A stretch of DNA of 64,000 nt from Raja brachyura. Lineage: Eukaryota. The translations under genes were made by a program, and so were the position numbers. Below, piece after piece: positions 8,485 through 63,755 of the stretch. Within the stretch, counting starts at the first letter, position 1. The number at the start of each line of letters is the position of its first letter. The stretch lies in assembly GCA_963514005.1 (NCBI GenBank), contig OY740807.1, positions 14,384,001 through 14,448,000 of the forward strand, in the 5' to 3' direction. A model generated the notes under the pieces. The model made no database searches and had not been told where the DNA came from. It saw only the letters and a program-made list of their open reading frames with translations.

Positions 8485-8572
8485 GACACAAAAAGCTGGA
8501 GCAACTCAGCGGGACAGGCAGCATCAGAGAGAAGGAAAGGGTAACGTTTCAGGTCGAGACCCTTCTTCAGAA
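8485..8572 (-). mobile_element. Penelope-derived short unit with a hammerhead core
   Basis: Reverse complement reads CTGAAGA-AGGGTCTCGACCT-GAAACGTT followed by the family tail. Confidence 0.8.
8543..8570 (-). ncRNA. Putative minimal hammerhead ribozyme core (PLE type)
   Basis: CUGAAGA box, stem II GGUC/GACC hairpin, GAAA box and palindromic ACGU stem III, as described for Penelope-like-element minimal HHRs. Stem I is very short. Confidence 0.55.
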
Positions 8573-8869
8573 CTATCTAGGTGTGCTTCATATCTTCGAA
8601 TGTATTTCATCTCTTCTTTATGCAAGATGCCCAGACCATCTGTAAATAATTTCAAGCATGCCTGCATGGCTCATGCCTCATGGGATCTCTCGATGCATCT
8701 GAGCTTCTTGTTAAGAATGTTTTCTCTGATCACATGAAAGACAAAATGTACAGAAATACGTGCCTCCCCTCGTCGGTTTCCTCCGCCCCTGCAGCAATTA
8801 TTTTAAATCCAGCCATAGAAATGTAATCACAACTTCTTGTAGCTGGTTGCTTCGCAGAAATTCCAGCTT

Positions 8870-9370
8870 CTTGTAGCTGGTGCAGAAATTCCAACACACA
8901 GGAACGCAAGAGGCTGCACGCTGTGGTGGACTGAGTCTGGTCCACCATGGGGACTGACTTCCCCACCATTGAAGCATCTGCTTGAGGCATCACCTCATGA
9001 AGACGACATCTGTCTTCAAGGATACCAACCATCCAAGCCTTGCCCTCTTCTCACTGTGACTATGAAGCTTCAAGTCACACACCACCAGGGCCAGGAATGT
9101 TACTTTCCAATAACGAACAGGTTATTGAACCAACCTGCACAGCCCTAATCCCACCTCGGCAACAGAATATTCCAGACCACCTCTGGTGTACCATGGGCTT
9201 GTCTTGCACTGATATCATGTTTTTTTGCAGTCTTTTTCTTTTCAATTGATGCGCAATTTATGTTTTTGTTTGTCGCAGAGCCTATGTGCCTGAGATGCGG
9301 CTGCAAGCAAAATTTTCAATGTAGCTGTAGCTCACTGTACTTGTGCCTACGACAATAAACTAAATGTGAC
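8870..9370 (+). mobile_element. Rex1/Babar LINE 3' end (degraded)
   Basis: NSNTQERKRLHAVVD…MGTDFPTIE…KSHTTR…FQ…RLLN-like decayed frames; tail …gtgcctacgacaataaac. Confidence 0.75.
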
Positions 9371-9695
9371 TGACTTGGAATCTAGAAGAAATTATGCATG
9401 AAAAATAGGTTCAAATAACATCCTCAGCCAAAATGGCAGTACAGACAGATAACAGACCTGTAAAAGAGACCTGCAATATACTGCATAACATGCTCATTCC
9501 GGGATGGAGCAAGAGTATACTTGTAATTTCCTGAACCGTGTACACAGAGTGGAAAAGAGCGTTTGACATTCCCTCCCTATGAAGATCAACAGAGGCTTAG
9601 GAGCATCTTGACTACTATATCTGCCTGGTTTGGCCTAAACATACCTGTGATTGCTCTTCAATGGCCAGTGAAGAGAAAAGTTAACTAGTGAAGAT

Positions 9696-9883
9696 AGACA
9701 CAAAAAACTGGAGTAACTCAGCGGGTCAGACAGCAATAGATGACGTGTCTTTTCGGAAGAAGGGTCTCGACCCAAAATGTCACCGATTCCTTGTCTCCAG
9801 AGATGCTGTTTGACCCGCTGAGTTACTCCAGCTTTTTGTGTCTATCTTCAGTTTAAACCAGCTTCTGCAGTACTGTTCTACAC
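9696..9883. mobile_element. Fold-back Penelope-derived short element with a TSD-like flank
   Basis: An inverted partial unit is followed by a direct unit (ggaagaagggtctcgacccaaaatgtcacc…). Flanks agtt(aa/gg)ctagtgaagat at 9679-9695 and 9884-9900. Confidence 0.8.
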
Positions 9884-9989
9884 AGTTGGCTAGTGAAGAT
9901 CTGAGCGTACTGGGTGCACTAATGGGGTCAGGGTCTATCACACTTTCCTCTTGCTTACATTACCCGAGTAAAGAAGAATAAAGAACCGC

Positions 9990-10340
9990 AGTTACATAAT
10001 CTCTTCACAATCGCAGGATGACCCAAATGTTTTACCGTACCTTTGAAATGTAATGACTGTTGTAATGTGGGTAAGACAACAGCGGACGGTAAACTCTCAC
10101 CAACTACATGATAGTGACAAGGAGCTGCATTAGTAACATTGATAAATATTGACCACCAAAACACTAGAGAGTAATCGGATATCACAGGATGGTTTGCATC
10201 CATCTAGGAGCGTAGTTAGTCCTTTGTTCAACGTTTGGTCTGTAAGACTGTACTTTGAACAGTGAGGACCGTTCAATAGCACACTGACAGGCTTGACCTA
10301 GGATCCGGACCCATGTCTTTGAGCAAGGCTAAACAACACT
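9990..10340 (-). mobile_element. SacSINE1/Deu-domain SINE (old)
   Basis: Reverse complement resembles the Deu domain (…tttgaaatgtaatgactgttgtaatgtggg…gataaatattgacc…). Confidence 0.55.
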
Positions 10341-12590: not shown

Positions 12591-12799
12591 TCCTTTGATC
12601 AAAATTCAACTGAAGCAGACATGTAAACACTTTCACAGTAAGACCAAGTTACAAGCTGGAGATTTGGTGATGAGTGACTTACCTGAAATGTTGACTTGAT
12701 TTCCCGTCTCACATATGCTGCCTGACCTGCTGATTATTCCAAGCTTTTTCTAATTCAAACCTCCAGTATCTAGTGCCAGACCAGCTAGAAAATACTCAA

Positions 12800-13095: not shown

Positions 13096-15486
13096 CCTTA
13101 CTTGTAAGTTATCAATTGCTTGTAAACTCAGCCACAGCAGACCTAACCTTTATAAAAATAAATAAGGTAACATTGGTTAGAATATCCTGCTCTTAAACCT
13201 CCCGGAATAGCATCAACCTGGGGCAGTGTTCTTGTGCGTTCTATATTGGTGCTGGGACTTAAACTCGAGATTAATGAGGAGAAGTATCTGGAGAAGCTGA
13301 AGAGAGCGTGTGTGTAACCGGCACAGAAGAGAAGAGAATTTGAGGCCTGGAGGAAGTCAGCCCTGGCGGGGTGGTTTTGAGGGGCCAAGTGGCCTATTCC
13401 TGCTCTACTAAATGTGTTTGTAAATTAAACAATTAGGTGCCACTGTGCCGCATTCAAATATTCCACAACGTTATTGTGTTTTTTAAAAAACTTTCAGGAC
13501 TCCAATCCCAGAGCCAATGATTCCAGGTATTCTTATTTCTGGACAGAGCCTCTGTAATTCTTTGTGTAATTTTATGCCCAAGACTGATCAACTTAACATA
13601 TGCGAATGGTAGTATCATTGATTTCCAATCCCAGGTCATCCCTGTGGGAATCTTCCTTCACAAACACCTGCTGAGATAAATGAGTGTTTGGTCACCAGCA
13701 CGAAACACACACGATAATATCAGGTACCATTATGCTGCTCTTCACTTCCTTGACTTCAGTGGAACCAAATATGCCAAAGTGAATCCTGGGATATCTTTGC
13801 GCCCATTTAATACTGGCAACCTGGAATCTCAGCACCCGGTTGCAGGAGCTTCCTGACCTGTAATCATTAAAGGGAGATTCTACCCTGTTATCAAATGGAC
13901 AGCTGCTCGGTAGAATTCACAAACTCAGGTAAAGCTGTTACTTTATGCTAGATCTCTTTTGTTAAATTACTGTTAACTCCATAGATCCACAGAGGAAAGT
14001 TATGCAACGAGTAAGACATTAAAGTCTTAAAATCATCATGTTGACTTCCCTCTATGGCCATACCAACTTCTTCACTGTGATTTAATAATGAGGATTGGAG
14101 GATTTAATTTATTTCAGAGGTTGTAGAGGAGAAGGGATATAGAAATGATGGAGGTATTTGAACATAGGAATGAGAGTTTTAATTGCAAATATTAATACCC
14201 AGTTAAAATGTGCATTGCATTTCACTGTGGCTTGAATGTGCAGGAGGACTTTGTTGGCAATGTCAAATGAGTATGAGGCACGTTTGACATCACCTCGTGT
14301 GCTTAGAGCCCACTGTGCAAACACGGAAGTACTAACAATAATTTTGGACCCTGGTCTTCTGTCCTGACTTGCAGATAGCCCTGAGGCATCTTTGCCATGG
14401 CTGCTTCTTTGTTTTAGTCCAGCTGATGGTGTTATCCTGACTGCCGCTCCACAAAGGGTTAAAACAATGTTCTTGCGCAAAGCAGAACTTGAGGTGGTGG
14501 GAGAGAGATGGCGGACGGGGTCGAGAGGGGTAGTCTAGGGAGATGGTGGGGGATGGTCTTGGTGCTGGTGCTGTGGGATTGCTCAATGTGGTCAGTAATG
14601 AATTTTATGTTACATTAAAGCCACATAAATGGTCGGCCCAGCACAGACAACAAGTGGCCAGGCACCAGGGGCTAATCTAATGATGTAAAAATAGAGACAG
14701 TACCAATTATATGGCAGCCCATACCACACTGCTGCAGGGACTCCCAATGAATAGCTACAAATCAAATTACAGGCTAATAGACGCACTACAAGAGGGGGCA
14801 GTCAATGCTAACTGCATTACTGCCTTGTGACCTTTCTGCTCTGAGCTGCACGGTCCAGACTCAGACTTGCACCCTCTGGAATATGAAAGAGCCTGTTGTT
14901 AGGAAAAGCAGTGGAACAAGGCAGTGTCCCTAAATGAGTTAAACACTAAGCTGTCAAAGTTTCCCTTTGTTTATGTGTCACTCTCTTGCTACCCAGCACA
15001 ACCCCTCCATCGAAAGCACGACAATGGTAAACACATCGAACCTTTGGCTATTTTGTTTGCCCACAGCTCTATGGCCCTGGGAACTCTCTGCTCCTCTGTA
15101 GCCTCTTGAACGTCTCTGAGATCCAGCACCTCATCACTGGATGCCATGGCTTCTGCTACCAAGGCCTGGAATTCCCTCCTTGCGCCACCCAACCTCTTTA
15201 CCTTCCTCTCATCATTTAATCTCTTCCACTTAGGCTGATTCAGCAACAAGTTTTGTGGGCTTTGAGATAGCTAGTGAGTGCTATATAGGATTACAGACTC
15301 TACCACAGGTGGTGGTGGGTGATATTCCACTAGGCAATGGATGTGCTGTTTGCTCCTTTCCTTTGTTTACACTTGGGCCTTGCATGAGGATGTTATATAT
15401 TTTAAAGGAGATTTTGAGAATCTCCTCTTTCCTCCTGGAAATCTCTTTTCATGACAAGGCCAAACGTGCTTGTTTCAGTAAAATGG

Positions 15487-16060
15487 GGACGCAAGAGACT
15501 GCAGATGATGGAATAGTGAGCAAAACACAAAGTGCTGGAGGAACTCAGCGGGTCAGGAAGCATCTGTGGTGGGAATGGACAGGCGATGTTTCAGTTTGCG
15601 ACCCTTCTTCAGACTGGGTGGAAGAGGTTGGAGAAAGCTGATAAAAGGAGGCGGGGGTGGGACAATTCCTGGCAAGTGATTGGTGAATACCACCATTCAT
15701 CTCCCCCCCACATCAGTTCCCCTGCTCCATCCCCCTCCTTTATGCACTCATCTCCCATCCCCAAGTCCCCCATTTCCATTTCCCCCTCCTTTTCCCTTCC
15801 CATTATCCCCTTGCATACACGTCCTTTCCTCCAGCTTTACATTTCACTCCTCCTCTCCTCATCTGACACCCTTCTGTCTCCTTTTCACCTCTAGACTTTG
15901 TCACTTACTTCACCCATCTGCCAATTAAACCCCTCTCACCAGTGCAGCTATCACTTGTCAAGTTTTTTCCAGCTTTCTTCCCAATTCCAATCAGTCTGAA
16001 GAGTCCCAACCCAAAACTTCATGACTCCATTGCTGCTTGACCCCACTGCGTTCCTCCAGT
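15487..16060. mobile_element. Penelope-like pseudo-LTR in inverted (fold-back) arrangement
   Basis: Minus-oriented unit ~15487-15690, then a pyrimidine-rich plus-oriented pLTR ending atcagtctgaagagtcccaaccc…. Confidence 0.7.
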
Positions 16061-16074
16061 ACGTCGTGCCCTAC

Positions 16075-16480
16075 TTGTTCCGGAAGCCTAATGCCGGGCA
16101 TGTGGCCAATGTGCTCTGTACGCCAGAGCTGATTGAACATGATCAAAGCCTCCATGCCTGGGGTATCAGTTTAGGAGAGGATACTGACATTGGTTTGCCC
16201 ATTCTGCCAACAAATATGGAATATTTTCTCGAGACAGTGTTGGTGGCATTTTTGGGCACCTGTTATAGGATGCCCTTGTCTCCAAACCACTGATCATTGC
16301 TGCACCCTGAGATCAAGAGCTCAGCTTAAGGTTCAAGGTCTTGGTCTGTCACTCAGTCTGCCAGAATGTGCTGGCTCGATGTGGGCAGTGGTGGATTTTG
16401 TCATGAATTTTTGTCTTTGCTGAGAGGTGGCTCCCGGCAGACAGAAAGTGATCCACACGTTTCAGGATCTTGTTTATGGG
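16075..16480 (-). mobile_element. RTE-clade LINE fragment (RT C-terminal region, decayed)
   Basis: Minus strand: ILKRVDHFLSAGSHLSAKTKIHDKIHHC…RAS…; HQHCLEKIFHICWQNGQTNVSILS*TDTPGMEALIMFNQLWRTEHIGHMPGIRLPEQ. This matches the RTE pattern HQRCLRRIL.I.WQD…N.EVL…SIEA…QLRW.GH..RM…RLPKQ. Confidence 0.8.
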
Positions 16481-18410: not shown

Positions 18411-19101
18411 TTGGAACTGAATATCACCTGCACATGACCCCAGCCACAGATCAAGCTGCACTAAGGGTTCTGTTCTGAATGTGTCAAATAAGGTGGCCGT
18501 GCGCTGACCATGCCGTTTGTGGGGGAAGGGATGTTGTGCAGGGTCAGAGAGTCGCATGATAAGATACAGCCGGCCTGCCCCGGCCTATCTCTGCAGTTCT
18601 TACACTAAAAATGGATTAATGGATGTCAGACTGCAAGCATGTCAGCACATTCTTGAGTGTTTTTCATGAAGTTATTATTTGTCAGGAATCTAATGGGCTG
18701 AATACCTCCTTCACTGGGAACAGTAAACAACCTGTGAGCCAATGAGCCAGATCAGCCTCAATTTTTACTTCCTGCCCCCATCTTCCATATCCTCTGCTCC
18801 CCCACCCAAAATTCCAATATTTAACTGGCAGCATAGGTTGACTGTGGGTCGGTGCGGGCAAGTTGGGCTGAAGGGCCTGTTTCCACACTGTATGACTCCA
18901 AGACTGTCAGAAATCTACTCAACCCAGTAAGTATGAATACTCAGTGCCAGGAGTTCCACTGAAGGCTGCTGGGTTTCTTTGGGATGTAAGGCAGAACATC
19001 AGAAGGTTGAGCTAGAAGGTCAAAGTGGCTAACTTCACACCCAGACAGAAGGGCAAGGGTAGGACCATTGGGAGTGGGATCAAAGTCTCGGTTTGATGGA
19101 A

Positions 19102-19255
19102 ACACGAGGAACACCAGATGCTGGAATCTTGAGCAAAACACAACGAAGGGTCTGAAGTCTGAAAGAAGAGTCCCGACCCAAAACATCTTTTATCCATTCC
19201 CACAGATCCTGTCCTGACCTGCTGAGTTCCTCCGCCATTTTATGTTTTGCTCAAG
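19102..19255. mobile_element. Fold-back Penelope-derived short element
   Basis: acacgaggaacaccagatgctggaatcttgagc then gtctgaaagaagagtcccgacccaaaacatc…gctcaag. Confidence 0.65.
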
Positions 19256-20509
19256 GCTTTGATGGTGGCTTTGCTCTGAATAAAGAAATGTCAGTAATGT
19301 GACAGCCTCAATGCTGAGGCACGGTAAGGTGCAGCCACTTCTGTAATTGGTCCGCTTTGGAGAACTTTCTGTGAAGTTTGCTCTTCAATGATGATCCAAT
19401 CCAATGGCATCTACTAGGACCACCCAATCCAGTAACTGCGTCATATGGACTTATTCTAACTGTGAATGTCTCAGGTCTTGAGGTTGTCACAGCATGAGGG
19501 GGGGAGGGGAGGGCTGTTGCAACCTGAAGCAAATACTGGAGTCAGGCCACACATCAAAGTGCGTACATCGGATGTGCTCAAACCAGATCAGCTCAAAGTG
19601 ACCGTGTTACAACTTGAGAGCAGAGGGAATTTCTCTGCTGCATTTCACCAGGCTCTGCCGGGCTATTTGATGTGTGCTGGTTTCCAACCTATGGCACACC
19701 TCAACTGGGCTCTTTTATAAGCGGTCTAATTGGCAAGACGCTGAGTGTCCCTGGATGCAAGTTGCACAATCAGGGCATAATTTCAGCCCACAGCACTCAG
19801 AGGGAAATAGACTAAATCAGGGTGCATGTGATACAGCACCTCCAGTGACCCACTTCAATTCTGACCGTGGATACTGCCTGTGCAAAGTTTACAAGCACTC
19901 CTTATGGGCTTTCCCAGTGTGCCCCAGTTCCTTGCCATATCCAGAAGATGTGCAGGCTGTTCAGTTCATTGGCCACTGTAAATTGACTTGCATGCAGATG
20001 GATGGTAGGTAGATCAGTGGCAGGTGTTAATGGGCATATGCCAGACAATAGACTGCAGGGAAATATAGGAGGGAGGGGATTGATGGGATTGTTAACACAA
20101 ATAATGGGCTGAAGGATCTCCTTCTGTGTTGTAGGTAAATATGAAACGTTGTCATCAGTTTTGGCACCTGTTTAGCAAGTTGACCAATGGGTCATGGGGA
20201 TAATGTCTGGTCTGGTTAGGTTATCATAAACTCAGATACGGCTGAAACCTCAGATAATTTAGTGCTTGTGCCTTGAAAATGTAAGGATAGATTTTTTTGC
20301 ACAGTGGCTCGTGAAGATGACCAAAGTGTCTTGAAAACTAATAAAGGGAATGGGAATACATTTTTTATTTAAGTTTTTAAATGCCAATTTTAAGACTTCT
20401 GAAACCTACCGATATTGATAGGAGATTGCTTTTATTGTAGGGTGGTCATGATTCGTTGTCCAGGTAAGAGTCTCTCCAAGTTGTTATCTCAGTTTCTCTA
20501 CAAGGTTTA

Positions 20510-20848
<339 letters not shown>

Positions 20849-28986: not shown

Positions 28987-29224
28987 TTACAGGACACACC
29001 AAGAGTGGCTAAGTCCAACATTTCAAGTTAGTAATCCACTGTAGTTATTTATCCATAAAGGATTCCCTTAAACTGTGAAATATCGGATTTTCCATCCAGT
29101 ATTTTACCAAAAACAATTACCAAAAAGAGAGGCACCCTTGAGGCAGAGTCAAACAAATTCTGTTTTTATTTATGATTTAAGTCCAATAAATACTTCCCAA
29201 AACACCTCAATTATTTGGTTACAC

Positions 29225-29710
29225 TGAGACACAAGAAACTGCAGATGGTGGAATCTTGAGCAAAAACACAAACGTTTTGTGGAGGTGAGTCAGGCAGCAT
29301 CTGTGGAGGGAATGGGTAGACAATGTTTCAGGTTGGGCCCCTTCTTCACACTGGTTGAGTACGGAGGAGAAAGCTGGAAAAGAGAGACGGGGCAAAGCCT
29401 AAACCTAGCAAGTGATAGGTGGATACAGTTGGGGGTGGGAGGGGGGGAATGACTGGCAGATGGCTGGAGTAAATTACACAGTATTGAGATGAAAAGGAGA
29501 CAAAGGGGTGCCAGTTAAGGAAAACAGCGGAGGAGTGAATCTATGCCACACTCCCCTCTCATTCCCCTCCCCCCACCGCATCCTCCTACCGGCGCAACAC
29601 ATCTCTCCCACGTCATCATGCTTCTTTCCCCTTTATACGCTCCTCCTATCCCTGAGTCGCATATTCCTTTTTTATCCCCAACTTTCTCTCCTCTCTCCCC
29701 CTTATACAGC
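29225..29710. mobile_element. Penelope-like pLTR, fold-back, interrupted by the GC-rich element (resumes ~30573-30612)
   Basis: gagacacaagaaactgcagatggtggaatcttgagc…gggcccttcttcacac, then a pyrimidine-rich pLTR segment. Confidence 0.65.
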
Positions 29711-31759: not shown

Positions 31760-32190
31760 GCTCAACTTCAAGTTACACCCCTCAACCCCTCTTTGTTTCC
31801 CATGCCCCCACCCGCACCCTGGTGCGCCCCCATTTCTCCCACCAACTCCTACCCCTCCTGGTCACCTTGTTCCTTTCCCCTCCTTTATCCCCTCATCTCC
31901 CATCCCCGATTCCCCCCTTTTCTTCCCACTCTGTCCACTCCCTTGTTAACACTTCCACCCACATCCCTCCCTCAAGCTTTACGTTTCATTCCCCCTCTCC
32001 TCTCTTTATCGGACAGTCTTTTGTCTCATATTCATCTCTAGCCTTTGTTACTTACTCCACCGGCCCCCCTCCTACCAGCTTTCACCCACCAACTACAATC
32101 AGTCTGAAGAAAGGTGCCTGAAACCTCGCCTGCCCATTACCTCCACAGATGCTGCCTTACCCTCTGGGTTCCTCCGCCATTTTAAGTTCC
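31760..32190 (+). mobile_element. Penelope-like element 3' pLTR
   Basis: caacttcaagt…pyrimidine tract…actacaatcagtctgaagaaaggtgcctgaaacctcgcc…gatgctgcc. Confidence 0.7.
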
Positions 32191-32569
32191 GCCCTGAACG
32201 AATGTTCTTCCTGAGGTTTTCATGTGGCATTCCCTGCCAAATGGCTATTCTTCCCACATGTAATATTTTTCCATAGAACATACAAAGGTACAGCAACGGG
32301 ACAGGCCCTTCAGCCCATAATGTCTGTGCCCAAGATAAACTATTCTCCTCTGCATTTCTGTAACAGCCTTCCCAACCCCAGATTGTTCCAAAGCTCTGTA
32401 CAATAATTATTTTGAAATGTACTTGCTACTGTCATGTAGGAAATACGACAGCTAATTTAGAAATGCAAACTCCCACCAACAACAATGCCACCATCAGTTT
32501 AGTGATGATGGTTAAGGTATGTATTAATCAGAGTACCTGGAGAATATCTTTGCCCTGTTTAGGATATTT

Positions 32570-36620: not shown

Positions 36621-36654
36621 CTGATCGACAGTACCAAGCAAGCTATTTAATCAG

Positions 36655-36882
36655 AGATACAGTGAACTGCAATTGCTGGAATCGTGAGAAAATCATAAAA
36701 GTGCTGGAGGAACTCAGTGGGTCAGGCAGCAACTGTGGAGGGAATGGACAGGCGACATTTTGGATCAGGACTCTTCATCACACTCCGGGTCTGAAGATGG
36801 GTCAAAACATCGCCTGTCCATTCACTCCACAGATGCTGTCCGACCAGCTAAGTACCTCCAGCACTTTGCGTTTTGTTCAAGT
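36655..36882. mobile_element. Fold-back Penelope-derived short element
   Basis: aaagtgctggaggaactcagtgggtcaggcagc…ctcttcatca / gtctgaagatgggtcaaaacatcgcctgtcc…cctccagcactttg form inverted arms. Confidence 0.75.
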
Positions 36883-37924
36883 TATTTAACTAAGGAGGTA
36901 TCCGTTGTCATCCAACAATCTTACTTCTAAGCACACACTTTGCATGAGGAGTTCGTGATCATAAGCAAGGGGACTGGCTGTTTTCCCTTGCCTAAGGGTT
37001 ACTGAAATACATTTTAACCTCAGCCAGCACAATCACCACCTCAGATAAGGTATCTAAGTCAGCAATGGATCGTGGTCTGCATGGCCTGTTTAAGTTTCTA
37101 ACTATAGAGGGAGCCGTTGATTATTTTCAGCAGCCTCTGTCTGACTCGGCAAAACCCTGAGTGCCAGTTGACCTCAGTACCACCATCAAAAGAAAACCCA
37201 AACAGAGTCCAAGTTTGATGTCCTAACGACACGGCAATCCGTGGCATCAAGTACAGGAGATTATCAAACCTGTTTTATGTAAAGAAGAGTAAACAGCAGA
37301 TGGTGAGCAGATGGTTGGGGGGGGGGGGGGGGGGGGGAGGTGGTGGGGGTGGGGGACGAAGAACTGAGGACACAATTAGAGAAAAAAGGTTTTTAATAGC
37401 TAAGAGTGAGATGGCAACATTGACGGTTTGATGAGAGGAACGCAGAGGTACTTTGTTTGTGGCTGACTATACTTCATGGCACGGACTAGGGCTGTATTCT
37501 TTCCAGTGTAGATTAAAGATGATCCAATTGAGTTGTTTAAGACGATAACATGATTTTCGGTTTACTAGTGAAAGAGTACTGCATTGTCAGAGGTGCTGCT
37601 TGCCCTGTTGCCCTCGCTGATATGGCTTTCTGAACCAGCACTATAATCAGATTACCCTTATATTCACCACCAAGCTGTTTGTGGGATCACACAATGTATA
37701 AATTGGACACTGTATAAAGTGATTTGTGAATGGTAAGCTTGTGAACAGAACAACTTAACTTTCGATTTTTCTAGCATCTGCAGTTCCTTCGTAAAAACTT
37801 CCAATGTCTAGTATCAGGTGTCTATCTGTCAGGCAAGGCATTGGGGTTTGGGATAGGGGCAACCGGGACAAATCCTTTATTACATCTGAGCTCAATCCTA
37901 TCCACACACAATACGCGCAGTTAT

Positions 37925-38260: not shown

Positions 38261-40119
38261 CTCTGTCCGATCTCTACCGCACGTGCATCATTTTCAGGAG
38301 TTGGTTGTAACAGCCAGGAATGAGAAGTCTGAGTGTTTTATTTGCACCCTCTCCAACACTCACTACATTTACTGAAGTGACCCAGTCAATGCTAACTGCA
38401 CACCTTCAGGAGTTAGAGTTACAAGCAAGTTCAATATGACATCAGATGGTGCACTCTTACACCAAACCACCAGGAAAGGGATAATTGAGATCTTCCCAAA
38501 TCTCCTTTGGAAAGATGCAGCATGCCCACACATCAGTTGAAGTGGGAACAGAGGATGTGGCTGCAAGCTCGTACCACACCCTGAGGTGAGGACGTCCCAA
38601 GCAGACTGCTGTTCTTTGAATCTACAACTGCTGGATCGTCCTACAGTTCTCAATCTTAATTACAGAAGCACTTCACAGACAGACTCCAAACAACACTCAC
38701 GCTGAAAGCCACTCTGAGGGAGGCACTGCAAAAACAACCTTCAGTAGTTACAAGCTGCTCCTTTTAGCGACAGGCCGTGCTGGGCATAAGCAAACACTTG
38801 CAGCTGACGATGTGTCAGATATACGACTTGTTTGGTTATCTGGGCGGCTTGTTTGCTGTCTCGGACTCCTGGAGCCAGAGGTTAACCCAACTCCTCCTCC
38901 ACAAATGCTCACTTTGATTTGATAACTGCTCTGTTTCTTTCCCCCTCCCCATGATCCTAGTCTTGCTCTGCCCATCATGAAATTATTCACTCAGGTGGAA
39001 AATGCATCTCCCCCAGTTCCAGAATGAATCCAGTCATTGTGCTGCGATTCAGAAAAATCACAACACAATCGTGTCTCTGGAATGTTATGTGTTCTGTGCA
39101 TACATTGACCTGCCAGTTGGTTAATCCACATATAAAAACACTGATTTCAGCAAACCCCACACCGGTTTCCTTGGGAGATGCACCATTGATGTGACTCATT
39201 TGCTGCTGAAACCATCAACCATGCCTTGGAACCTTCCTACCTCACTATTCATCAGAGGAAGGATCTCATAAGGTCATAAGTGATAGGTATAGAATTAGGC
39301 CACTCGGCCCATCAAGTCTACTCCGCCATTCAATCATGGCTGTTCTGTAATTGGCACCCGTTCTTGACCCGAAACATCACCCATTCCTTCATTCCCAGAG
39401 ATGCTGCCTGTCTCGCTGAGTTACTCCGGCATTTTGTCTCTATCTTTGGTGTAAACCAGCGTCTGCAGTTCCTTCCTACACTGTTCATCATCCACGCTCA
39501 TTTCATTTCGACTGATGTAAATCTCTGTTAATCCTGGTGTTCACTTGCACCATTCACGCAAAATTGCCATTCACCCAAAATTGATTTGTTTGCTGATCTT
39601 CATTTGTTCCCATCCAACAATCCTTCCATTATAATACTGTCATCCTTGTTTTCAAATCCTTATGTACTCTTAACATTTTCTCTGTAACTATCTGTAGCTC
39701 TGCAATTTCCTGCAGTGCATTTCCAGTCCTGGCCCTTTACAGATCGTTGATTTTCATCAACTAACGGTCATGTTTGTAGCTTCTTTGGCCAAAGCTTTGG
39801 AATTTCTTTGGTCTCTTTGATGTCGTAATAGCTCCTTATATTGTGCAATCTCATGATGCTCCTGTGAAGTATCTTGGGATTCATTACGGTGAAGGTGTCA
39901 TTGGCGGTGTTGCCAGTGGTGCCGGGAGACAGACCTTTGCTCACACCCACACGATGCCAGCATGGTAGGTTTAACACTTAGTGGTGACATTGCTGTCATC
40001 GTTATATCAGAAAGACGACTAAATTAAGCATCTTCAACAATTATCAAGGAAGCAGTTTCTCTCCCAGTACTCGGCAAGGTAATGAGCCAGGATTCCCATC
40101 ACTATTTCCAACAGACTTT

Positions 40120-40900
40120 GAGACAGAGAAGAAAAAAGTGATGGAGTGACTCAGCAGGTCAGGCAGCATCTCTGGAGAACATGGATAGGTGACGTTGGAC
40201 CCGTTTTCTGACTGTGGTGGACGAAAGAAACCTGGAAGTAAGGGCATGTCAAAGCCTGGCAAGTAATAGCTGGATACAGATGCAGGGTGGCCGGGGGGGT
40301 TGATAGGCAGATGGTTGGACAAAGGCCTGAGATGAAAAGACTAAAGGTGTGAGAGAAAGGGATTGAAAATTTGCATATTGTGAAGCTAGAGGAATGAATG
40401 TAGGCGGAAGGGGAAGGTGCATGGAGAAATGGGTATGAGTCCAGGTGGGAGATGGGGGAGGGTGGGCTATTGATATCTAAAATTGGAGAATTCAATTCAT
40501 ACTGTTGGCTATCCAAGCAGAATATGAAGTGCTGCTCCTCCAGTTTGCGTGTTGCCTCACTCTGGCAAAGGACGAGGCTCAGGACAAAAAGGTCAGTATG
40601 GGAATGGGAAGAGAAGTTAAAATGGTTAGCAACTGGGATGTCCAGTAGGCCTTGACGGACCGAGCACAGGTATTCGGCGAAATTATAACCGAATCATAAC
40701 CGGTTCATAACATTACCGAAATGATAAATGATAACCGATTCTATGCTTTGTTTTACCAATGAACAGGAGACCACATCATCTACATGCAGTGGATGAGGTG
40801 AGATGAGTTGCATGTGAACCTCTGTCTCACCTGAAATGACTCTGAGGTCCCTGGATGCAGGTGAAGGAGGTATTGGGTCATGCACAGACATCTTCAATCC
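40120..40900 (-). mobile_element. Penelope-like retroelement 3' part (GIY-YIG endonuclease relic plus pLTR)
   Basis: Minus strand: IQGPQSHF…VRQRFTCNSSHLIHC…CGLLFIGKTKHRIG…; FAEYLCSVRQGLLDIPVANHFNFSSHSHTDLFVLSLVLCQSEATRKLEEQHFIFCL, a PLE GIY-YIG pattern. Confidence 0.85.
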
Positions 40901-41953: not shown

Positions 41954-41999
41954 AAACTGATAATGCTGGGTTTGCAACAGATGCAATCCTCTGATAAGT

Positions 42000-42093
42000 C
42001 CTCAGTCCGGGTCTCGACCCGAAACGTCGCCTATCTCCTTCGCTCTTTAGATGCTGCTGCACCCGCTGAGTTTCTCCAGCTTTTTGTGTAACC
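42000..42093 (+). mobile_element. 94-bp 5'-truncated Penelope-derived unit with 14-bp TSD
   Basis: gggtctcgacccgaaacgtcgcc…tttttgtgtaacc, flanked by atcctctgataagt at 41986-41999 and 42094-42107. Confidence 0.85.
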
Positions 42094-42259
42094 ATCCTCT
42101 GATAAGTGGTTGGAGAGGAAGGAACATGGGTCTTCTGCTGACAGTAATCTATGACTGCGGACTTGTTAGAACCGATACTTTGTTTCTCAGTTTCCCAGAA
42201 AGACAATCCCAAGACCTAAAGGCAATACCACACTGTCCTGGCACATATTAGATTATCTT

Positions 42260-42386
42260 GACACAAAGAACTTCAGATGCAGGAATCTTGTGCGGAACAC
42301 AAAGTGCTGGAGTAACTCAGTGGATCAGCGAGCAGCTCTGGAGGACCTGGATGGGTGACGTTTCGGGTCGGGACCCTTTTTCAGAT
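42260..42386 (-). mobile_element. Penelope-derived short unit
   Basis: gacacaaagaacttcagatgcagg…ggtgacgtttcgggtcgggacccttttttcag. Confidence 0.75.
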
Positions 42387-44183
42387 GATGTCACGGTATA
42401 GGCAAGGGACTGCAAAGATGTGCCCATCACCCGGTAAGTGGCAGAGACTGATGCTGGTGGGAGTGGCCTCGGCCTAATTATCATGTCAGCCTCGTGTCAA
42501 ACAACAGTGGCAAGGGAAGCACTGCTGCAAGAAAATCAATTATGATGCTCTCGGCACCCTGCATGGAAAAGAAGCTCTCTGTCGACAGCAACGCACTGAC
42601 AACTTTCCAAAAAATGGACACATATATACATTTTTATTTCCAAAAACAGATTCCGTCACCTTCCTTCTCTCCTCCCTCCTCTCCACCCCCACTGTTTACT
42701 CTCAAACCAACTGGCTGATTGAATTGTTCACTGACCTTTGACCCATCACAGTCTGCAGCCTTCAAGCCACCCTGCCATGCAGTGATTGGATCTCCTGTAG
42801 TTTTATGAAGTTGTTCTTTGCTAATAAAACACTAACTGCTGGGCTTAAGTGCTTCTTCATGACCCCCTGGTTACCACCTAGTGATGACCTCATGACCCTA
42901 CTTTGGGCCCAGTCAATTTTGACCGTATTTCTGCTGTAGTTCTGTGCTCAGCTTAGAAGCAAATGCAACGTTTTCTGTGCTGAAGCTAGGAGAGGAAGGC
43001 AAGGGTTTGTACAGAGACCCTGCTATCATTCTTGGACCCCCAGAGTCTGCTAGTGGGTCCAGAACACGTTCCTGCCAATAACACCTCGGTATTCCAGCTG
43101 TGAGACAAAGCAAATGCGCTTTTTGGGTTGAATTCAAAAAATTCATTGGTAGCTCTAGAAAAATTAAAATGGCCTGGAAGCAACAACCTTCCACCCCAAT
43201 AAAGTCGTCTCTTCTCGCGAATACGTCGAAATATCCTGGACAGGGTCGCCAATCCTGGAGATTGAGGCCAATTCACCAGGACATGTGGCAATCAGTATTC
43301 AAGAGAACGGAAATCAAAGGTTATTTGAAAAAAAGATGTATTTTCATTTCCTTTACTTATTTTTTGTTTTCTCATTCTAAATCTATTGGAGATGGGGGAG
43401 GGGGTTGTTGGGGGTGAGGAACAAATGTTTAATTGGGTGGGCAATGGGTCAGGTGATGTCACCTCCAGGAGTCTGACCAACTTGATTTGGAAAACCCTCA
43501 TCTCAAGCCAAGGCCTCCCGGATGCCGGATGTTTTCTGTGTATGCAGCTGTCAACGGCAAACAAATTCAAGAGGGAGATTTACGAGTAAAAAGAGTGAGA
43601 CCGATTGCAAATCCACTTAAACACACGTGTTTACTGTTAAAGTCGGGATTGCCAGTGTCCTGAGAGGCGGGTTCACTGGAGAGGCATCGGTATCCTGCCA
43701 ATGGGGCTTGCCTTTTGGAAGTGGTCAAAGTGCAGACTGGCTGGCTTTACTCTTGTGCCAGAAAAGATTCATAGATTCCCGTTCCCTTGGAAACCTGATG
43801 CTATAAGGAACAATGCTGTATTCGTTGTGGTGGATAAGACGTCGACAAATGGTTTTCCTGCTCACAACCCCTCACAATATCACCGCTCGCAGCTCCAATG
43901 ATACTATTCAAGCGCTTGTCCCAGATACCAGTGGCACTGGTGGGGTTCTTTCTCAGGACTACCATGCAGACTTTAGCAATTTAAACATTAAATTTCAAGA
44001 CACTCTCACTGGCATTAAAAAAATTGGAAAAAATATTTCCAAAAAAATGTCCTTGGGCTTTAAGGCTGACAGCTCAGAATGAGAAAAAAAAAGTACATGC
44101 ATAAGAGAGAGGAGCAGTCCACTCGGCCCCTCAAACCAACTCTGCCCTTCAATAAAGTTTGTGGCCTGAACATCACTTTTCTT

Positions 44184-47669: not shown

Positions 47670-48130
47670 GTCATAGAATATGATCATGGCTGATCATCCA
47701 ACTCAGTATCCTGTACCTGCCTTCTCTCCATACCCCCTGATCCCTTTAGCCACAAGGGCCACATCTAGCTCCCTCTTAAATATAGCCAATGAACTGGCCT
47801 CAACTACCTTCTGTGGCAGAGAATTCCACAGACTCACCACTCTCTGTGTGAAAAAAGATCTTCTCATCTCGGTCCTAAAAGACTTCCCCCTTATCCTTAA
47901 ACTGTGACCCCTTGTTCTGGAGTTCCCCAACATCGGGAACAATCTTCCTGCATCTAGCCTGTCCAACCCCTTAAGAATTTTGTAAGCCTCTATAAGATCC
48001 CCCCTCAATCTCCTAAATTCCAGAAGTACAAGCCGAGTCTATCCAGTCTTTATTCATATGGAAGTCCTGCCATCCCAGGAATCAGTCTGGTGAACCTTCT
48101 CTGTACTCCCTCTATGGCAATGCATTCTCC
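47670..48130 (-). mobile_element. Young CR1 3' end
   Basis: ORF 47703-48008 RGDLIEAYKILKGLDRLDAGRLFPMLGNSRTRGHSLRIRGKSFRTEMRRSFFTQRVVSLWNSLPQ… is an intact C-terminus. Confidence 0.95.
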
Positions 48131-51391: not shown

Positions 51392-51951
51392 AGGGCCTGT
51401 CCCACTTACGCTACTTTTTAGGCGACTAGGCTGTCGCCACATGGTCGCCAGGGTGTCGTCTGCATGGTCGTGAGTAGTCTCCTCAGTTGCCGAAAGAGTC
51501 ATAACGTCTTTCTGGTCGCCGCTGAATTTTGGAATTTCAGTCGCCGCGACAGTGGGTTGATGCCAATGAGTGTAGCTTGACTTCCCCTGATGTAGGTGTT
51601 GTCGTAGGTTGTCGCCAGGTGACGTAGGTTGCCGCCGGTGCTGATTTTGGTGAATTCCATTGGCGACTACTACGTCAACCTACGTCCACCGGCGACAGGT
51701 ACCGGCGACTGAATTGTCTTCAGTTGGCTTCAGTTGTCGCCGACAGGGTTGTAGCTTGTGGACGTAGGTTGACTTCGGTTGTCGTAGGTTGTCACCTGTG
51801 TGGTCATAGGTTGTCGTAGGTGATAGGTTGTTGTCGCTTGTCGTAGACATTGTCGTAGGGGGCGGTTCAGTCGCCGGTTTTTCGGCAACCTGCTACGACT
51901 ATGACAGTCACCGGCAGTCGCCTAATAAATCGCCGAAGTGTGACAGGCCCT
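51392..51951. mobile_element. PIF/Harbinger-type MITE (560 bp) with internal GTCGCC/GTCGTAGGTT arrays
   Basis: TIR AGGGCCTGTC(C/A)CACTT…; TTA TSD at 51389-51391 and 51952-51954. Confidence 0.9.
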
Positions 51952-51964
51952 TTAGGTTACATAT

Positions 51965-52290
51965 TAAGTTGAGAAGAATGAGGGGGGACCTCATTGAAAC
52001 GTACCAAATAGTGAATGGCTTTGATAGAGTGGATGTGGAAAGGATGTTTCCGCTAGAGGTAGAATCTAGGACTAGAGGTCATAGCCTCAGAATTAAAGGA
52101 TGTTCCTTTAGGAAGGAGATGAGGAGGAGTTTCTTTAGTCAGAGGATGATGAATCAATGGAATTTTTTGCCACAGAAGACTGTGGAGGCCGTCAATGGAT
52201 ATTTTAAAGTAGAGATAGCTAGGTTCTTGATTGGTATGGGTGTCAGGGGTTATGGGGAGAAGGTAGGAGAATGAGGTTAGGCGGGAGAGA
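51965..52290 (+). mobile_element. CR1 3' end
   Basis: LRRMRGDLIETYQIVNGFDRVDVERMFPLEVESRTRGHSLRIKG…. Confidence 0.92.
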
Positions 52291-56730: not shown

Positions 56731-56978
56731 CATTCACCAATGTGCCTTCTGTTTTATTTCATTGGGATTTGCAGGATCTTGTTGTGGTTAAATGACTGCC
56801 ACATTTCCTACATTACGTCAACATCTGCAAAATGTTTTTAAAGTGACTCCTTTAACGTTATATGGTTAGCTACGACACATGGGCTTAACAGTGCATTCAA
56901 CATCCCAAAATCAGTGGAGAAATACAAGTTTCCTCTTTACATTCTTATTCCAATAAAAGCTAGAGTGGTTCTCTCCCT

Positions 56979-57179
56979 GTGTAGGAAGGAACTGCAGATG
57001 CTGGTTTACACCAAAGATAGACACAAAATACTGGATTAGCTCAGCGGGAGAGGCATCATCTCTGGAGAGAAGGAATGGGTGACGTTTCAGGTCGAGACCC
57101 TTCTACAGACTGAAGAAGGGTTTCGACCCGAAATGTCACCTATTCCTTCCCGACAGAGATGCTGCCTGTCCCGCTGAGT
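56979..57179. mobile_element. Fold-back Penelope-derived element, two hammerhead-core units back to back
   Basis: …gacgtttcaggtcgagacccttctacagac|tgaagaagggtttcgacccgaaatgtcacc…; arms of ~70 bp are near-complementary. Confidence 0.85.
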
Positions 57180-57551
57180 GGTTCTCTACCTGACATGTCT
57201 GCACATTAACACGTTGAGCACAGAAACAGGGCCTTTGGCCCAACTCATCCATACCAACCAAGATCCCCATCAAAGCCTGTCCCATATGCCTGGCTCTGCC
57301 TCATGTCCCTCTGAACCTTTCCTATTCATGTACATGTCCAAGTGTCTTTTAAATGTTTCATTATCTGTCTCAACTACCACCTCTGACAACTCGTTCCATA
57401 TACCCACCACCCTCTGAATGAAAAAATCTCCCCTCAGATTTTTATTAAATCCTCCCTCTCACCTTAAATTTATGTCCCTCTGGTTCTTGATGCCCCAATT
57501 CTGGGTAAAAGACTGTGCATTCACCCTATGTATTTCTCTCATTATTTTATA

Positions 57552-59218: not shown

Positions 59219-60303
59219 AGATAAAATAAATCAGGCACAAGAACAACAGTTGTTATGGCTGGAAGCACAATTGACACAGATTCGGCAGATCGGGGTGTCT
59301 ATTTGGAATACTTCAGGATGCCCAGCAGCCTGTGTACCACAGCAGAAGAGAGCATTGCTTTGAGACTTGAAGCGAATATAAGCCTTGAATACAAGGAGAG
59401 AAAGTACTGTCCGCCCACACTAGTTTAAACAAGCACAAGAGACTTTCAGCATCTACCACTTCCTCTCACACCACGGCCTGGCCTTTCCCTGACACCAACA
59501 CATTTGCTCTCTCTGAGAAATTCCAAACAGCATTTCCTCAAAAAAGATCAAACCGTGGGATAAATTTCTCTGGGAATCCTCATCCTCCCCACAGCCCATG
59601 ACTGCAGGTACTAAGAATAAACTAAATTCCAGGAAGTCTTTGGACTTATAATGCTGCTCTGGGAAAACGTTTGGTAAACCTTAACACGAGTGATCTCCAG
59701 GGTCAAAGACAAAAAAGTCATCGTGCTCGACACATCAGCTCCCTGTCTGCATTAAATGCCAATGCACTGGGTGTCAACGCCACTCACACTTCTTCTCTAT
59801 TTCATATATTGAGATTGCGTGGGAGTTGCAATCAACCCTTTTTATCCAGCACTTACTATCCAACAAAAGTACATGTGAGGACCACATTGTTACTTTGCGT
59901 GGGCCTTCATTAGAATAGGAAGGGGGTGAGGGAGGATCCTGCAGGCAACCTGAATCTGGATGATACCTGTAGGTCATCAATATTTCTTGTCAGCAAATGT
60001 ACAGGAATGGCTGTGTGGCCTGACATGGATTATATCGGTGTTACTGTGAGGGATTTATCAGAGGGCGTTTAGTCATGGTGTTTAAGAGACTTTTAGATCA
60101 CCACATGGATATGTAGGGAATGGTGGGATGCGGATCAAATGCAGGGAAGTGAGATTAGTTTAATTTGACATCATGTTGGGCAGACATTGTGGGTTGAAGG
60201 GCCTGTTCTTGTGCTGTACTGTTTAATGTTCTACGTTACAGTGAGTAGTGTGGCCGTCACAGTATGGGTTCGAGTATACCAGAGAGGGGAAAAGTGAGAG
60301 TTA

Positions 60304-60503
60304 NNNNNNNNNNNNNNNNNNNNNNNNNNNNNNNNNNNNNNNNNNNNNNNNNNNNNNNNNNNNNNNNNNNNNNNNNNNNNNNNNNNNNNNNNNNNNNNNN
60401 NNNNNNNNNNNNNNNNNNNNNNNNNNNNNNNNNNNNNNNNNNNNNNNNNNNNNNNNNNNNNNNNNNNNNNNNNNNNNNNNNNNNNNNNNNNNNNNNNNNN
60501 NNN
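60304..60503. other. Assembly gap (200 N)
   Basis: Run of N. Confidence 1.
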
Positions 60504-60940: not shown

Positions 60941-61046
60941 ATCCGCACTTTGTGATGGAAGGAAGGTCATTGGTGAAGCAGCTGTACCTAGGTCACTGCC
61001 CTGAAGAAGTCCTACACTGTTATCTGCGGTTGGGACGATTGACTGT

Positions 61047-61550
61047 CAATAGACAATAGACAATAGGTGCAGGAGTAGGCCATTCGGCCCTTCGAGCCAG
61101 CACCGCCATTCAATGTGATCATGGCTGATCATCCTCAATCAGTACCCCGTTCCTGCCTTCTCCCCATATCCCCTGACTCCGCTATTTTTAAGAGCCCTAT
61201 CTAGTTCTCTCTTGAAAGCATCCCGAGAACCCGCCTCCACTGCCCTCTGAGGCAGAGAATTCTGCAGACTCAACACTCTCTGTGAGAAAAAGTGTTTCCT
61301 CTCCGTTCTAAATGGCTTACTCCTTATTCTTAAACTGTGGCCCCTGGTTCTGGACTCCCCCAACATCGGGAACATGTTTCCTGCCTGTCGTGTGTCCAAA
61401 CCCTTAACAATCTTATATGTTTCAATGAGATCCCCTCTCATCCTTCTAAACTCCAGAGTGTACAAGCCCAGCCGCTCCATTCTCTCAGCATATGACAGTC
61501 CCACCATCCCGGGAATTAATCTTGTAAACTTATGCTGCACTCCCTCAACA
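61047..61550 (-). mobile_element. Young CR1 3' end with (CAATAGA)n tail
   Basis: ORF 61139-61561 VEGVQHKFTRLIPGMVGLSYAERMERLGLYTLEFRRMRGDLIETYKIVKGLD… is intact. Confidence 0.95.
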
Positions 61551-61889
61551 ACCATAAGCATCTTCCTTCATGCAAGGTATAACTCCAACTATTGGCAGTG
61601 TTTTCTTCTCGACATCCAAGTTTTATCAAAAGCTATCTGAAATCTCCAACAGGCAGTGTAAAGCCACAATGGACACAAGGTCCGGCTGCTGTGTAATCGT
61701 TGATCCCTGCAGGGTCCGAGGCTGCGTTCAGCATCTGGGTGAACACACTGAATAATTTACATGGTCAAAATGCTTTAACATTTTGCCAGATCGAAAAAAG
61801 GTTATGCGGCTCATCTGCTGAATATATCACAGGTTTTTACATATGTTACAAGTAAAAACTTTAAACTACAAAAACAGACAGAGCCCTAT

Positions 61890-62170
61890 GTCTGTGGACT
61901 ATTAGAAAGTAATTTGTTTAAGTAACTTAATTAGCATCCGTCCTGTTTAATAAATGACCTGGCTTCCCCATCCCTAAACACAAATGGTGCTCCCAAAAAG
62001 GTCAGTTGATTACATAATTAATTAAAGGTGGCGGAACAGTGTGCTGGGGCACTGATGCCTCGTGCCATTTAACCAGGAAATGTGCCTTAGTGCACTTAAA
62101 GTCATGCATGCTTTTAGGTTGTCAAATCTCCAGAATTGTTCCAAGAATTAATGATTAAACTTCGAGACAG
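61890..62170. promoter_or_regulatory. Candidate conserved non-coding element
   Basis: Repeat-free island with TAATTAG, TTTAATAAA, TGATTACATAATTAATTAAA, AAGGTCA and TAATGATTAAA motifs. Inference only. Confidence 0.4.
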
Positions 62171-62569
62171 CAACACCTCAAGGGAAAAAAAAACAATTTA
62201 GCATTAAAAAAAAGTGCCCAATAAAATTATTTTTTTTAGCCTTCTTCTGTAAAAGCATGTTTAACTGAGAGTCAAAATATTTGTAATTGAGTTTACAAAG
62301 AGGCCATTTGTTTTTCAATTGGATATGGTTAGGTAGGGGGTATGGAGAGAAGGAATGGGTGACGTTTCGGGTCCTGGATGATTGATGCACATGGTGGCCA
62401 ATGGTCGGGGTATGGAGTTTGAATCCAGCCTTTATATACTTATTGTGTGGAAAACTGGGAGACACATTGATAGGTGGCAGTCATGTAACTAAACTATATT
62501 CATCCAGAGTTGACAATCCTACCAGGATCATATTCTCTCTTACTTTGCCAAAATAACCTGCACTGTTAA

Positions 62570-62763
62570 AACAGAAAAGGCTGAAAACATTCAACAGGTT
62601 AGGCAGCTTCCGTGGAAAGGGAAGATATTGGTCTGAAGAAGGGTCTCGACATTAAATGTCACCTATTCCTTCTCTCCAGAGATGCTGACTGTCCTGCTGA
62701 GTTACTCCAGCATTTTGCGTCTATCTTCGATTTAAACCAACATCTGCAGTTTTTTCCTGCACA
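62570..62763. mobile_element. Fold-back Penelope-derived short element
   Basis: gtctgaagaagggtctcgacattaaatgtcacc…catctgcagtttttcctgcaca, preceded by an inverted partial arm. Confidence 0.75.
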
Positions 62764-63299
62764 TATCAGTATTGGTATTGGTTTATTATTGTCACATGTC
62801 CTAAGATGCAGTGAAAAACAATGCTTATGTTGCTATCCAGGTAAATCAGACCATTCATTAGAACGATACAATGATATGATACATTAGTACAATACTGATG
62901 GTCGAGCAAATGAACCATCCCCTACCAGAGAGCAGTCCTGAGCTACCATGTATCTCATTGGAGACCCTCAGACAATCTTTAATTGGACTTTTCTGAACTT
63001 TATCGTGCACTAAATGTAATTCTCTTTATCCTGTAGCTGTACATTGTGGCGGCTTGATTGTAATCATGTATAGTCTTTCCGCTGACTGGATTGCGCACCA
63101 CAAAAACGATTTTAACTGTAGCTCGTTATACGTGACAATTCAGCTAAACCAATCTAAACTAAGACTACAGCACGTAGAGTGAAAAAAGGAAAAAAGAGTG
63201 CAGAATATAGTGTTACAACTACATTAAAAGTGCAGATAATTATAAGTGCAAAGGATGCAATAAAGTAGATTGTGAGATCGGAAACACATCCTTAGCATA

Positions 63300-63755
63300 G
63301 TTTCCAGTATATCGGCGAGACTGAGAGCAGGATCAGCGATCGTTTCGCTGAGCACCCACGCTCAGTCCTACCTGATCTCCCAGTTGCTCAACATTTTAAC
63401 TCCCCCTCCCATTCCCACACTGAGCTCCCTGTCCTCGGCCTCCTCTATTGTCATGAGTGTGGCCCACCGCAAATTGGAGGAACAATTGCGCCAGATTTAG
63501 CTTGGGCAGCTTACACCCCAGCGAAATGAACATTGACTTCTCTAACTTCAGGTAGCCCTTGCTTTCCCTCTTTCCCCATCCCCTCCACCTTCCCAGTTCT
63601 CCTACCAGTCTTACAGTCTCCGACTAGATTTTATCTCTGTACCGCCCACTCCCTGACATCAGTCTGAAGAAGGGTCTCTAACCGAAACGTCGCCCTTTCC
63701 TTCTCTCCAGAGATGCTGCCTGTCCCGCTGATTTATTCCTGCATTTTGTGTCTAT
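63300..63755 (+). mobile_element. Penelope-like element 3' end (GIY-YIG relic plus hammerhead-bearing pLTR), 9-bp TSD
   Basis: QYIGETESRISDRFAEHPRSVLPDLPVAQHFNSPSHSHTELPVLGLLYC…; SLGSLHPSEMNIDFSNFR*. TSD cttagcata at 63291-63299 and 63756-63764. Confidence 0.9.
63664..63691 (+). ncRNA. Putative minimal hammerhead ribozyme core
   Basis: CUGAAGA-AGGGUCUCUAACC-GAAA-CGUC with a GUC cleavage triplet. Stem II is partly mutated. Confidence 0.5.

Follow-up and report, generated by a model that had tools for sequence, protein, structure and literature searches.

Short copies of a hammerhead-bearing repeat unit, which we call stubs, recur throughout 64,000 nt of the Raja brachyura genome (GCA_963514005.1, contig OY740807.1, 14,384,001-14,448,000; hereafter the window, with positions counted from its first letter). 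We think it quite probable that they are run-off complementary DNAs (cDNAs), bordered by target-site duplications (TSDs), of the 90-135-nt end module of a Neptune-type Penelope-like element (PLE), and that each was copied from the 5' end of the element's RNA, this end being uncut and likely capped. An initial annotation of the window had instead described the unit as an independent, retrozyme-like family or one resembling short interspersed nuclear elements (SINEs). Rather than forming a separate ribozyme family, the stubs probably arise as by-products when the parent is copied.

A profile built from natural copies of the unit had 27 matches in the window at a threshold of E<1e-3, and the unit was present where the initial annotation had placed it. 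A later pass over the window delimited 25 copies, 13 on the plus strand and 12 on the minus strand. As controls, the reversed window gave a best unit match of only E 3.5, and the profile matched nothing in 800 kb of reversed random DNA. We then sampled the genome at 136 evenly placed 10-kb stretches (1.36 Mb; hereafter the sample), which contained 511 unit matches versus 56 matches to GIY-YIG and 8 to reverse transcriptase (RT). Extrapolation yields 1.0 million units genome-wide (0.89-1.15 million), or 3.7% of bases, in agreement with the very high copy number originally claimed. Young units and the 66-bp junctions described below were counted genome-wide by exact patterns, and the youngest family is represented by 29,497 exact 38-nt hammerheads. 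If the stubs are run-off products, about 3.7% of the genome would be the waste of one element group.

The Penelope origin of the unit was borne out by walking upstream of it through the genome, which reached intact parent elements with the same module before an intact Penelope open reading frame (ORF). At locus L132, the unit spans 3452-3583, and 35 nt after it comes the ATG of a frame of 1191 aa that encodes RT, a CX4CXXC linker, and GIY-YIG at the C-terminus. The C-terminal part exceeded the GIY-YIG cut-off (22.9 bits), the match to RVT_1 was below its cut-off (E 5e-4, with YIDD at 838), and the linker reads CNRKRCYTC at 1058, which fits the CX2-5CxxC motif of the Neptune clade. The parent is an endonuclease-bearing (EN+) PLE with a single ORF containing RT and, at the C-terminus, GIY-YIG, and appears, from the linker motif only, to be of Neptune type. 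The 5' layout of L132 recurs at L141 and L137, while partial tandems forming pseudo-long terminal repeats (pLTRs) and inverted copies are found in the layouts of L132, L141, L137, and L131. The unit, which is the pLTR end module of the parent, comprises the hammerhead, ~65 nt, and a tail of ~35 nt. Its two 3' ends lie ~35 nt apart, matching the 30-40-bp tail of EN+ PLEs. Among named proteins, the closest are from skates, rays, and sharks, and a PDB sequence search with the intact ORF found no match.

Three further observations concern the parent. L132:1-7786 holds a cut copy and a complete copy in tandem, 98% alike, each of which then has an inverted unit pair set inside its 3'-untranslated region (UTR). 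An 8-bp helix at L132:3504-3567 joins the unit body with the tail; it is invariant in the six larger subfamily clusters, has no covariation among clusters and no significant fold z-scores, and may be part of the RNA site of the protein. Annotated skate and ray proteins named kinases (P0001, P0010) match the RT region of the element, likely through mis-annotation or exonization.

The short copies have a preferred 5' boundary, as opposed to the random truncations that the initial annotation named as evidence that would speak against it. Among the 309 sampled units reaching the 5' (CUGANGA) box, 142 are solo, 100 are inverted, and 67 have at least 20 nt of upstream extension; upstream element sequence is shorter than 20 nt in 242 of the 309. 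For the 495 of 511 units aligned over at least 35 nt, the rate of 5' ends was 0.099 per nt at -6..0 versus 0.005 at +31..+60 (~19-fold), and 171 units start at -6..0 versus 19 at +26..+30. Solos keep T(-1), G(-2), and A(-3) and do not keep C(-4). The TCAGT at this boundary resembles what we take to be an initiator motif. The edge persists among copies at least 93% identical and in the youngest family, where the first 30 matches on one contig, some of them arms of one insertion, comprised 22 with 0-8 nt upstream, 8 with at least 608 nt, and none between. Genome-wide, 12 nt of master UTR are retained upstream in 8,567 of the 29,497 exact 38-mers. At the other end, copies stop ~90-100 or 125-131 nt from the C of CUGA, regardless of whether they are solo, inverted, or long.

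An extra G often precedes the boundary. Genome-wide, at one position, the base before AGT was G in 2,039 cases and A in 1,075, a ratio 2.45 times that of the background. In the random sample, the extra G occurred before AGT in 11 of 21 cases (p=0.015) and before GT in 9 of 22 (p=0.20). An untemplated G at the 5' ends of full-length L1 and SVA copies has been read as a copied cap (PMC4859970; this and all other literature is cited for those parts of each source that were covered).

The short copies are true, separate insertions with TSDs of 8-17 bp. Among young solos, 17 of 100 had a TSD score of at least 9, mostly with 12-14 bp, compared with 0.1% of shuffled pairs, and the left TSD ended within 6 nt of the 5' box in 15 of 25. 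Both TSDs proposed for the window were right, with 14/14 identical positions at 41986-41999/42094-42107 and 15/17 at 9679-9695/9884-9900. More candidates were found at 56963/57176 (16/17), 36639/36878 (11/12), 8472/8568 (10/11), 63291/63756 (9/9), and 19092/19258 (8/8), and the TSD score was 7 or less in 9 of 16 window insertions tested. The GIY-YIG remnants reported upstream of the unit were also recovered, at 63308-63549 (+) and 40866-40508 (-); Pfam had no match in two short window frames. The description of standalone copies held in part: some have their own TSDs, but those at 15487, 29225, 32100, and 3045 have Penelope 3'-UTR upstream. Copies at 9696, 19102, 36655, 56979, and 62570, previously described as single units, are each a back-to-back inverted pair.

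The sample contained 100 back-to-back pairs, 77 of which could be classified and 23 could not. A tailed (long) arm was combined with a tail-less (short) arm in 64 of the 77, where 38 were expected (p=3e-9), and many inverted junctions fall in a CAG-T-CTG palindrome. Direct tandem adjacencies numbered 8 among the 511 units, most involving a partial unit. About 40% of units sit in back-to-back pairs. Those at 56970-57185, 36645-36885, and 9685-9890 have predicted RNA hairpins of -101 to -124 kcal/mol, and such pairs are possibly a large source of double-stranded RNA.

We compared short and long copies within subfamilies, excluding copies below 88% identity or with fewer than 80 aligned nt and assigning subfamilies largely by long-copy references. 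Their majority sequences were identical in k1 (64 short versus 18 long copies) and k2 (47 versus 16) and differed at one CpG site in k4 (13 versus 11), while k5 had 2 long copies only. No position differed between short and long copies at p<0.02. Short and long labels mixed on a tree of 186 copies, requiring 33 changes versus a shuffled mean of 36.5 (P=0.11). The proposed family with its own lineage was not recovered: the stubs have the fixed ends and dispersed, TSD-flanked insertions of a SINE, and a source lineage of their own, apart from the autonomous partner, is not supported, there being no diagnostic sites and a mixed tree. Nor are they retrozymes, because direct tandems of units with complete hammerheads are rare and copies mostly start before the ribozyme, seldom at the cut site that would bound a monomer.

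The minimal hammerhead with an ACGU palindrome that the initial annotation expected is present in the master sequence (the 29,497 exact copies), which has the core boxes, stem II, palindromic stem III, and helix I, with a stem I of only 2 bp. Its core is invariant across subfamilies, stem II is invariant in six clusters of at least 13 copies, and stem I varies only between U-A and U-G. The window copies are without a master-type hammerhead. Both boxes are kept in 5 window units, a relaxed descriptor was passed by 2 of the 17 covering the 5' box, none of these has the 2-bp stem I, and Rfam at its gathering score had no matches in the window. Copies at 42000, 39355, and 6508 lack the CUGANGA box attributed to them, as they start 8, 11, and 39 nt into the unit. 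Within the sample, 52 units passed the hammerhead descriptor, corresponding to an estimated ~100,000 genome-wide.

Extra conservation of the hammerhead core in the copies was considered and rejected. Catalytic G12, part of a CpG, decays like any other, in 37 of 143 cases versus 68 of 281 for other CpG G's (p=0.72). Core A's in subfamily k1 differ in 14 of 572 cells versus 38 of 422 for non-core A's, and the youngest family has no core gap (7/259 versus 66/2122). We infer that the gap in k1 reflects diversity among source elements, not selection on copies. The hammerhead is not favoured in the monomer fold (-4.2 versus -7.6 kcal/mol), and whole-unit fold z-scores were not significant (-1.55 to +1.58). 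A candidate tail helix sequestering the CUGAAGA box was dropped because it was seen in two subfamilies only.

Inserted stubs likely decay neutrally and neither cleave nor move again. The idea that they place many self-cleavage sites in host pre-mRNA is not supported, because those in the window are either decayed monomers or pairs on opposite strands and G12 decays at the CpG rate. As ribozymes inside a host gene, these copies matter little. It is possible that the window lies in a BCAS3 intron, as had been assumed, but this placement is unconfirmed because the nearest BCAS3 WD40 exons (same contig, minus strand, G000:C29:14743792-15071621) are 296 kb from the window and a search for the C-terminal domain (PF12490) was empty but uninformative.

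Taken as run-off products, the stubs would be formed as follows. The RNA of the element would start, capped, at the first bases of the hammerhead just before CUGAAGA, and RT would prime inside this RNA at one of two sites, ~95 and ~130 nt. Priming in the first module would run off after 95-135 nt to leave a stub; in a read-through RNA, priming in the second module would create a long copy. Back-to-back pairs would arise from priming on both target strands with one start site per strand, a route suggested by the anole protein, which cleaves and extends both DNA strands (PMC11167929). The anole element also has two internal RT starts and an uncut RNA template in vitro (PMC11167929), and the pLTR of the D. 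virilis element contains an internal promoter, with the 3' pLTR able to drive transcription (PMC2377424).

Several points weigh against this account. The extra G was examined genome-wide at one position only and is not significant before GT in the sample, and it could come from cap-independent terminal addition or fold-back. The 5' ends are spread across ~7 nt. Furthermore, 17 starts fall at +28..+30 versus 7 expected (p=0.001, in a range picked post hoc and with several starts in inverted pairs), which suggests that some templates were cleaved. The lineage comparison relies on 92 nt and has low power. In D. virilis, transcription starts upstream of an intron, and the 3' end of this intron adjoins the hammerhead (PMC2377424, PMC4209133); that start differs from the one we propose. 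RNA runs X1-X4, in which the unit is far deeper than the ORF, consist of contigs only, are possibly DNA, and revealed no RNA starts or ends; they were not used as evidence.

One alternative is a SINE-like cycle in which stubs, once inserted, retain an internal promoter and undergo transcription, and the Penelope protein then copies them again. Fixed ends, TSDs, and the excess over ORF-bearing copies would all be expected, the internal promoter and active 3' pLTR of D. virilis provide a means of transcription (PMC2377424), and non-autonomous PLEs such as MRC1 exist (PMC8557442). However, such a family should differ from its parent, whereas the short and long copies of k1 and k2 have identical majority sequences, and the two classes mix on the tree. 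Moreover, the anole protein depends on RNA that extends to +172, ~55 nt beyond its start sites (PMC11167929), and the stubs appear to be without a stretch matching this RNA. We regard recopying of stubs as unlikely. A similarly small chance falls to a longer RNA in which the 5' boundary marks where copying is blocked or processing occurs, whether through a folded or protein-bound hammerhead, cDNA fold-back at CAG-T-CTG, or a splice acceptor (CAG/T). The inverted junctions inside the palindrome agree with fold-back, and the pyrimidine tract and CAG before the box resemble the D. virilis intron end. Yet an enzyme blocked by a hairpin would halt 3' of it, whereas the copies include stem II, and solos share no common upstream exon in an all-against-all comparison with a 35-nt threshold. 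The closeness of left TSD ends to the box also argues against these variants, none of which predicts the G excess.

The two remaining explanations are highly improbable. In a retrozyme cycle, tandem hammerheads would cut the RNA and circles would form before reverse transcription, which would account for the invariant master core and the small excess of cut-site starts. The scarcity of direct tandems is contrary to such a cycle, as is the fact that sequence 5' of the cut site is retained in most copies and both ends are fixed rather than permuted. Hardly more credible is random 5' truncation without a preferred boundary, the sharp edge being an artefact of detection. Upstream UTRs are indeed pyrimidine-rich and differ among subfamilies, and ~200 of 511 units do begin inside the unit. 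Nevertheless, solo flanks are 48% pyrimidine versus 77% for long copies, the edge persists in near-identical and youngest copies with TSDs abutting it, and the two classes of extension length contradict truncation at random. Run-off from the RNA 5' end is our preferred explanation.

Copies of the unit in the window and loci of its 66-bp derivative. Positions refer to the window unless a locus is named.
Feature	Position	Strand	Details
5'-truncated PLE	63291..63764	+	GIY-YIG remnant, 3'-UTR, tail-less unit 63660-63758, 9-bp TSD
Truncated element, older subfamily	40126..40866	-	GIY-YIG remnant, 3'-UTR, decayed unit 40215-40127
Youngest-subfamily stub 42009-42093	41986..42107	+	98% to subfamily; begins at stem II, no CUGANGA; perfect 14-bp TSD
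Back-to-back pair	9679..9900	.	Tail-less arm 9735-9690 (-), tailed arm 9753-9884 (+); 17-bp TSD, 2 mismatches
Back-to-back pair	56963..57192	.	Tailed arm 57113-56978 (-), shorter arm 57106-57179 (+), meeting at CAG-T-CTG micro-palindrome; 17-bp TSD, 1 mismatch
Back-to-back pair	36639..36889	.	Tailed arm 36784-36655 (-), tail-less arm 36789-36877 (+); 12-bp TSD, 1 mismatch
Back-to-back pair	62569..62763	.	Partial tail-less arm 62616-62575 (-), tailed arm 62631-62763 (+); no convincing TSD
Back-to-back pair	19092..19265	.	Tail fragment 19143-19107 (-), tail-less arm 19156-19248 (+); possible 8-bp TSD
Long-armed inverted pair	15486..16077	.	Tailed unit 15616-15488 (-), 3'-UTR to ~15914; tail-less unit 15988-16068 (+), ~140 nt UTR
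Solo tail-less stub 8571-8483	8472..8578	-	Begins 1 nt before CUGAAGA; both boxes present, cut site GUU; 11-bp TSD, 1 mismatch
Solo tailed stub, older subfamily	2214..2334	+	Decayed core
Tail-less unit 3138-3042	3041..3173	-	32 nt Penelope 3'-UTR upstream
Tailed unit	29224..29540	-	~190 nt 3'-UTR upstream
Tail-less unit	31865..32196	+	~230 nt 3'-UTR upstream
Tailed stub	39362..39483	+	Begins 11 nt into unit, no CUGANGA box
Tailed unit	42257..42400	-	~13 nt upstream match, decayed core
Unit fragment without hammerhead	6502..6560	-	
3' part of unit, cut by window edge	1..47	+	
31-nt unit fragment	62343..62373	-	
Very decayed unit	12668..12770	+	
66-bp repeat loci	L277-L296, L146:9205-9891, L147:9532-10000, L139:8697-8872, L046:173-325		Several in register inside older stubs

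The window also contains 7 copies of a 99-nt repeat family, D2, between 12457 and 58284, and an assembly gap of 200 N at about 60300-60500. Three frames (47703-48038, 51810-52274, and 61139-61567) resemble the C-termini of long interspersed nuclear elements and are presumably of CR1 type.

Elsewhere in the genome, the unit has given rise to a 66-bp tandem repeat without CUGANGA and stem II, whose copies have one new junction in common. There are 30,919 exact matches to this junction genome-wide and none in the window. We examined 20 arrays from the start of one contig, which had 1.9-14 units and varied start and end phases. None had a clear TSD, and the best flank repeat was 11 nt, in one array. 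Their 61 inner units matched their majority at 98.8% and one another between arrays at 97.3%, values obtained with no null control. Six arrays follow hammerhead heads that are only 80-88% like their subfamily. This suggests a common young source inserting into or converting old stubs, and the repeat may spread on its own. Spread as a minisatellite by recombination or gene conversion is just as likely as a putative circular template with homing. Combining both subjects, the stubs could be a base-resolution fossil record of Penelope transposition (a capped start at the first hammerhead bases, an uncut template, and two RNAs primed at two sites on two strands), accompanied by an independent, hammerhead-less 66-nt parasite that the family has spawned. 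This parasite would retain the cut-site strand, multiply as multimers on a circular template, and insert by homing, in register, into old stubs. We offer this combination tentatively and consider it rather doubtful as a whole.

For transcription start, RT priming, and inverted-copy formation in PLEs, one element has been tested in vitro. If our preferred explanation is true, the behaviour in vivo of a young vertebrate element whose ORFs are intact can be predicted exactly from the stubs: transcription from -3/-2, priming near +95 and +130 with each strand using one site, and an uncut template. Parts of the pattern are already published, namely dispersed single and opposite-strand minimal hammerhead ribozymes (min-HHRs) tied to truncated PLEs (PMC4209133), and tails and inverted copies (PMC8557442). 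Our literature search, whose coverage left out most subscription papers, Repbase, and Dfam, found no report of the fixed 5' edge, the extra G, or the pairing of long with short arms. For cartilaginous fish, neither fixed-ended pLTR stubs nor the 66-bp repeat turned up in this search, with the chondrichthyan retrozyme tables of a preprint (bioRxiv 10.64898/2026.07.22.740005) outside its coverage.

The hammerhead resembles the PLE min-HHRs of Cervera and De la Pena 2014 (PMC4209133) in its CUGANGA box, extra base before stem II, G10.1-C11.1 pair, GAAA box, and palindromic stem III. Those, too, are mostly single motifs "probably related to truncated PLEs", with opposite-strand pairs 100-700 bp apart. 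Here stem I has 2 bp, the length also seen in D. virilis, and stem II has 4-5 bp. The ~100,000 descriptor-intact copies compare with 4,000-9,000 for coelacanth and Xenopus by another method (PMC4209133), and the covered parts of that paper contain no description of a fixed 5' edge. A dimer result for min-HHRs was obtained by Lunse et al. 2017, as cited in PMC6765202.

The parent shares RT, a CX2-5CxxC linker, and GIY-YIG at the C-terminus with EN+ PLEs of the Neptune clade (Craig et al. 2021, PMC8557442), as well as partial tandems, an inverted 5' copy, and a 30-40-bp tail often at one end only. In contrast to those elements, most copies here are without an ORF, the 5' end is fixed rather than variable, and the pairing of long with short arms is quantified. 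Poseidon PAc of Anolis (Frangieh et al. 2024, PMC11167929) similarly has two internal RT starts bounding a tail, extension of both strands, and an uncut template. However, the starts of PAc lie inside its ORF, whereas here 35 nt separate the end of the tail from the first ATG downstream, and run-off products as a major genomic class are not described for PAc in the covered parts of that paper. Non-LTR (long terminal repeat) retrozymes (PMC7761336; Li, Clavereau, Pollet 2026, bioRxiv 10.64898/2026.07.22.740005) are also non-coding, derive from PLE pLTRs, and carry a type I hammerhead, and they are present in the one chondrichthyan sampled. Every unit of those retrozymes has a hammerhead, and the units follow one another in direct tandem, whereas the stubs occur solo or inverted and retain what lies 5' of the cut site.

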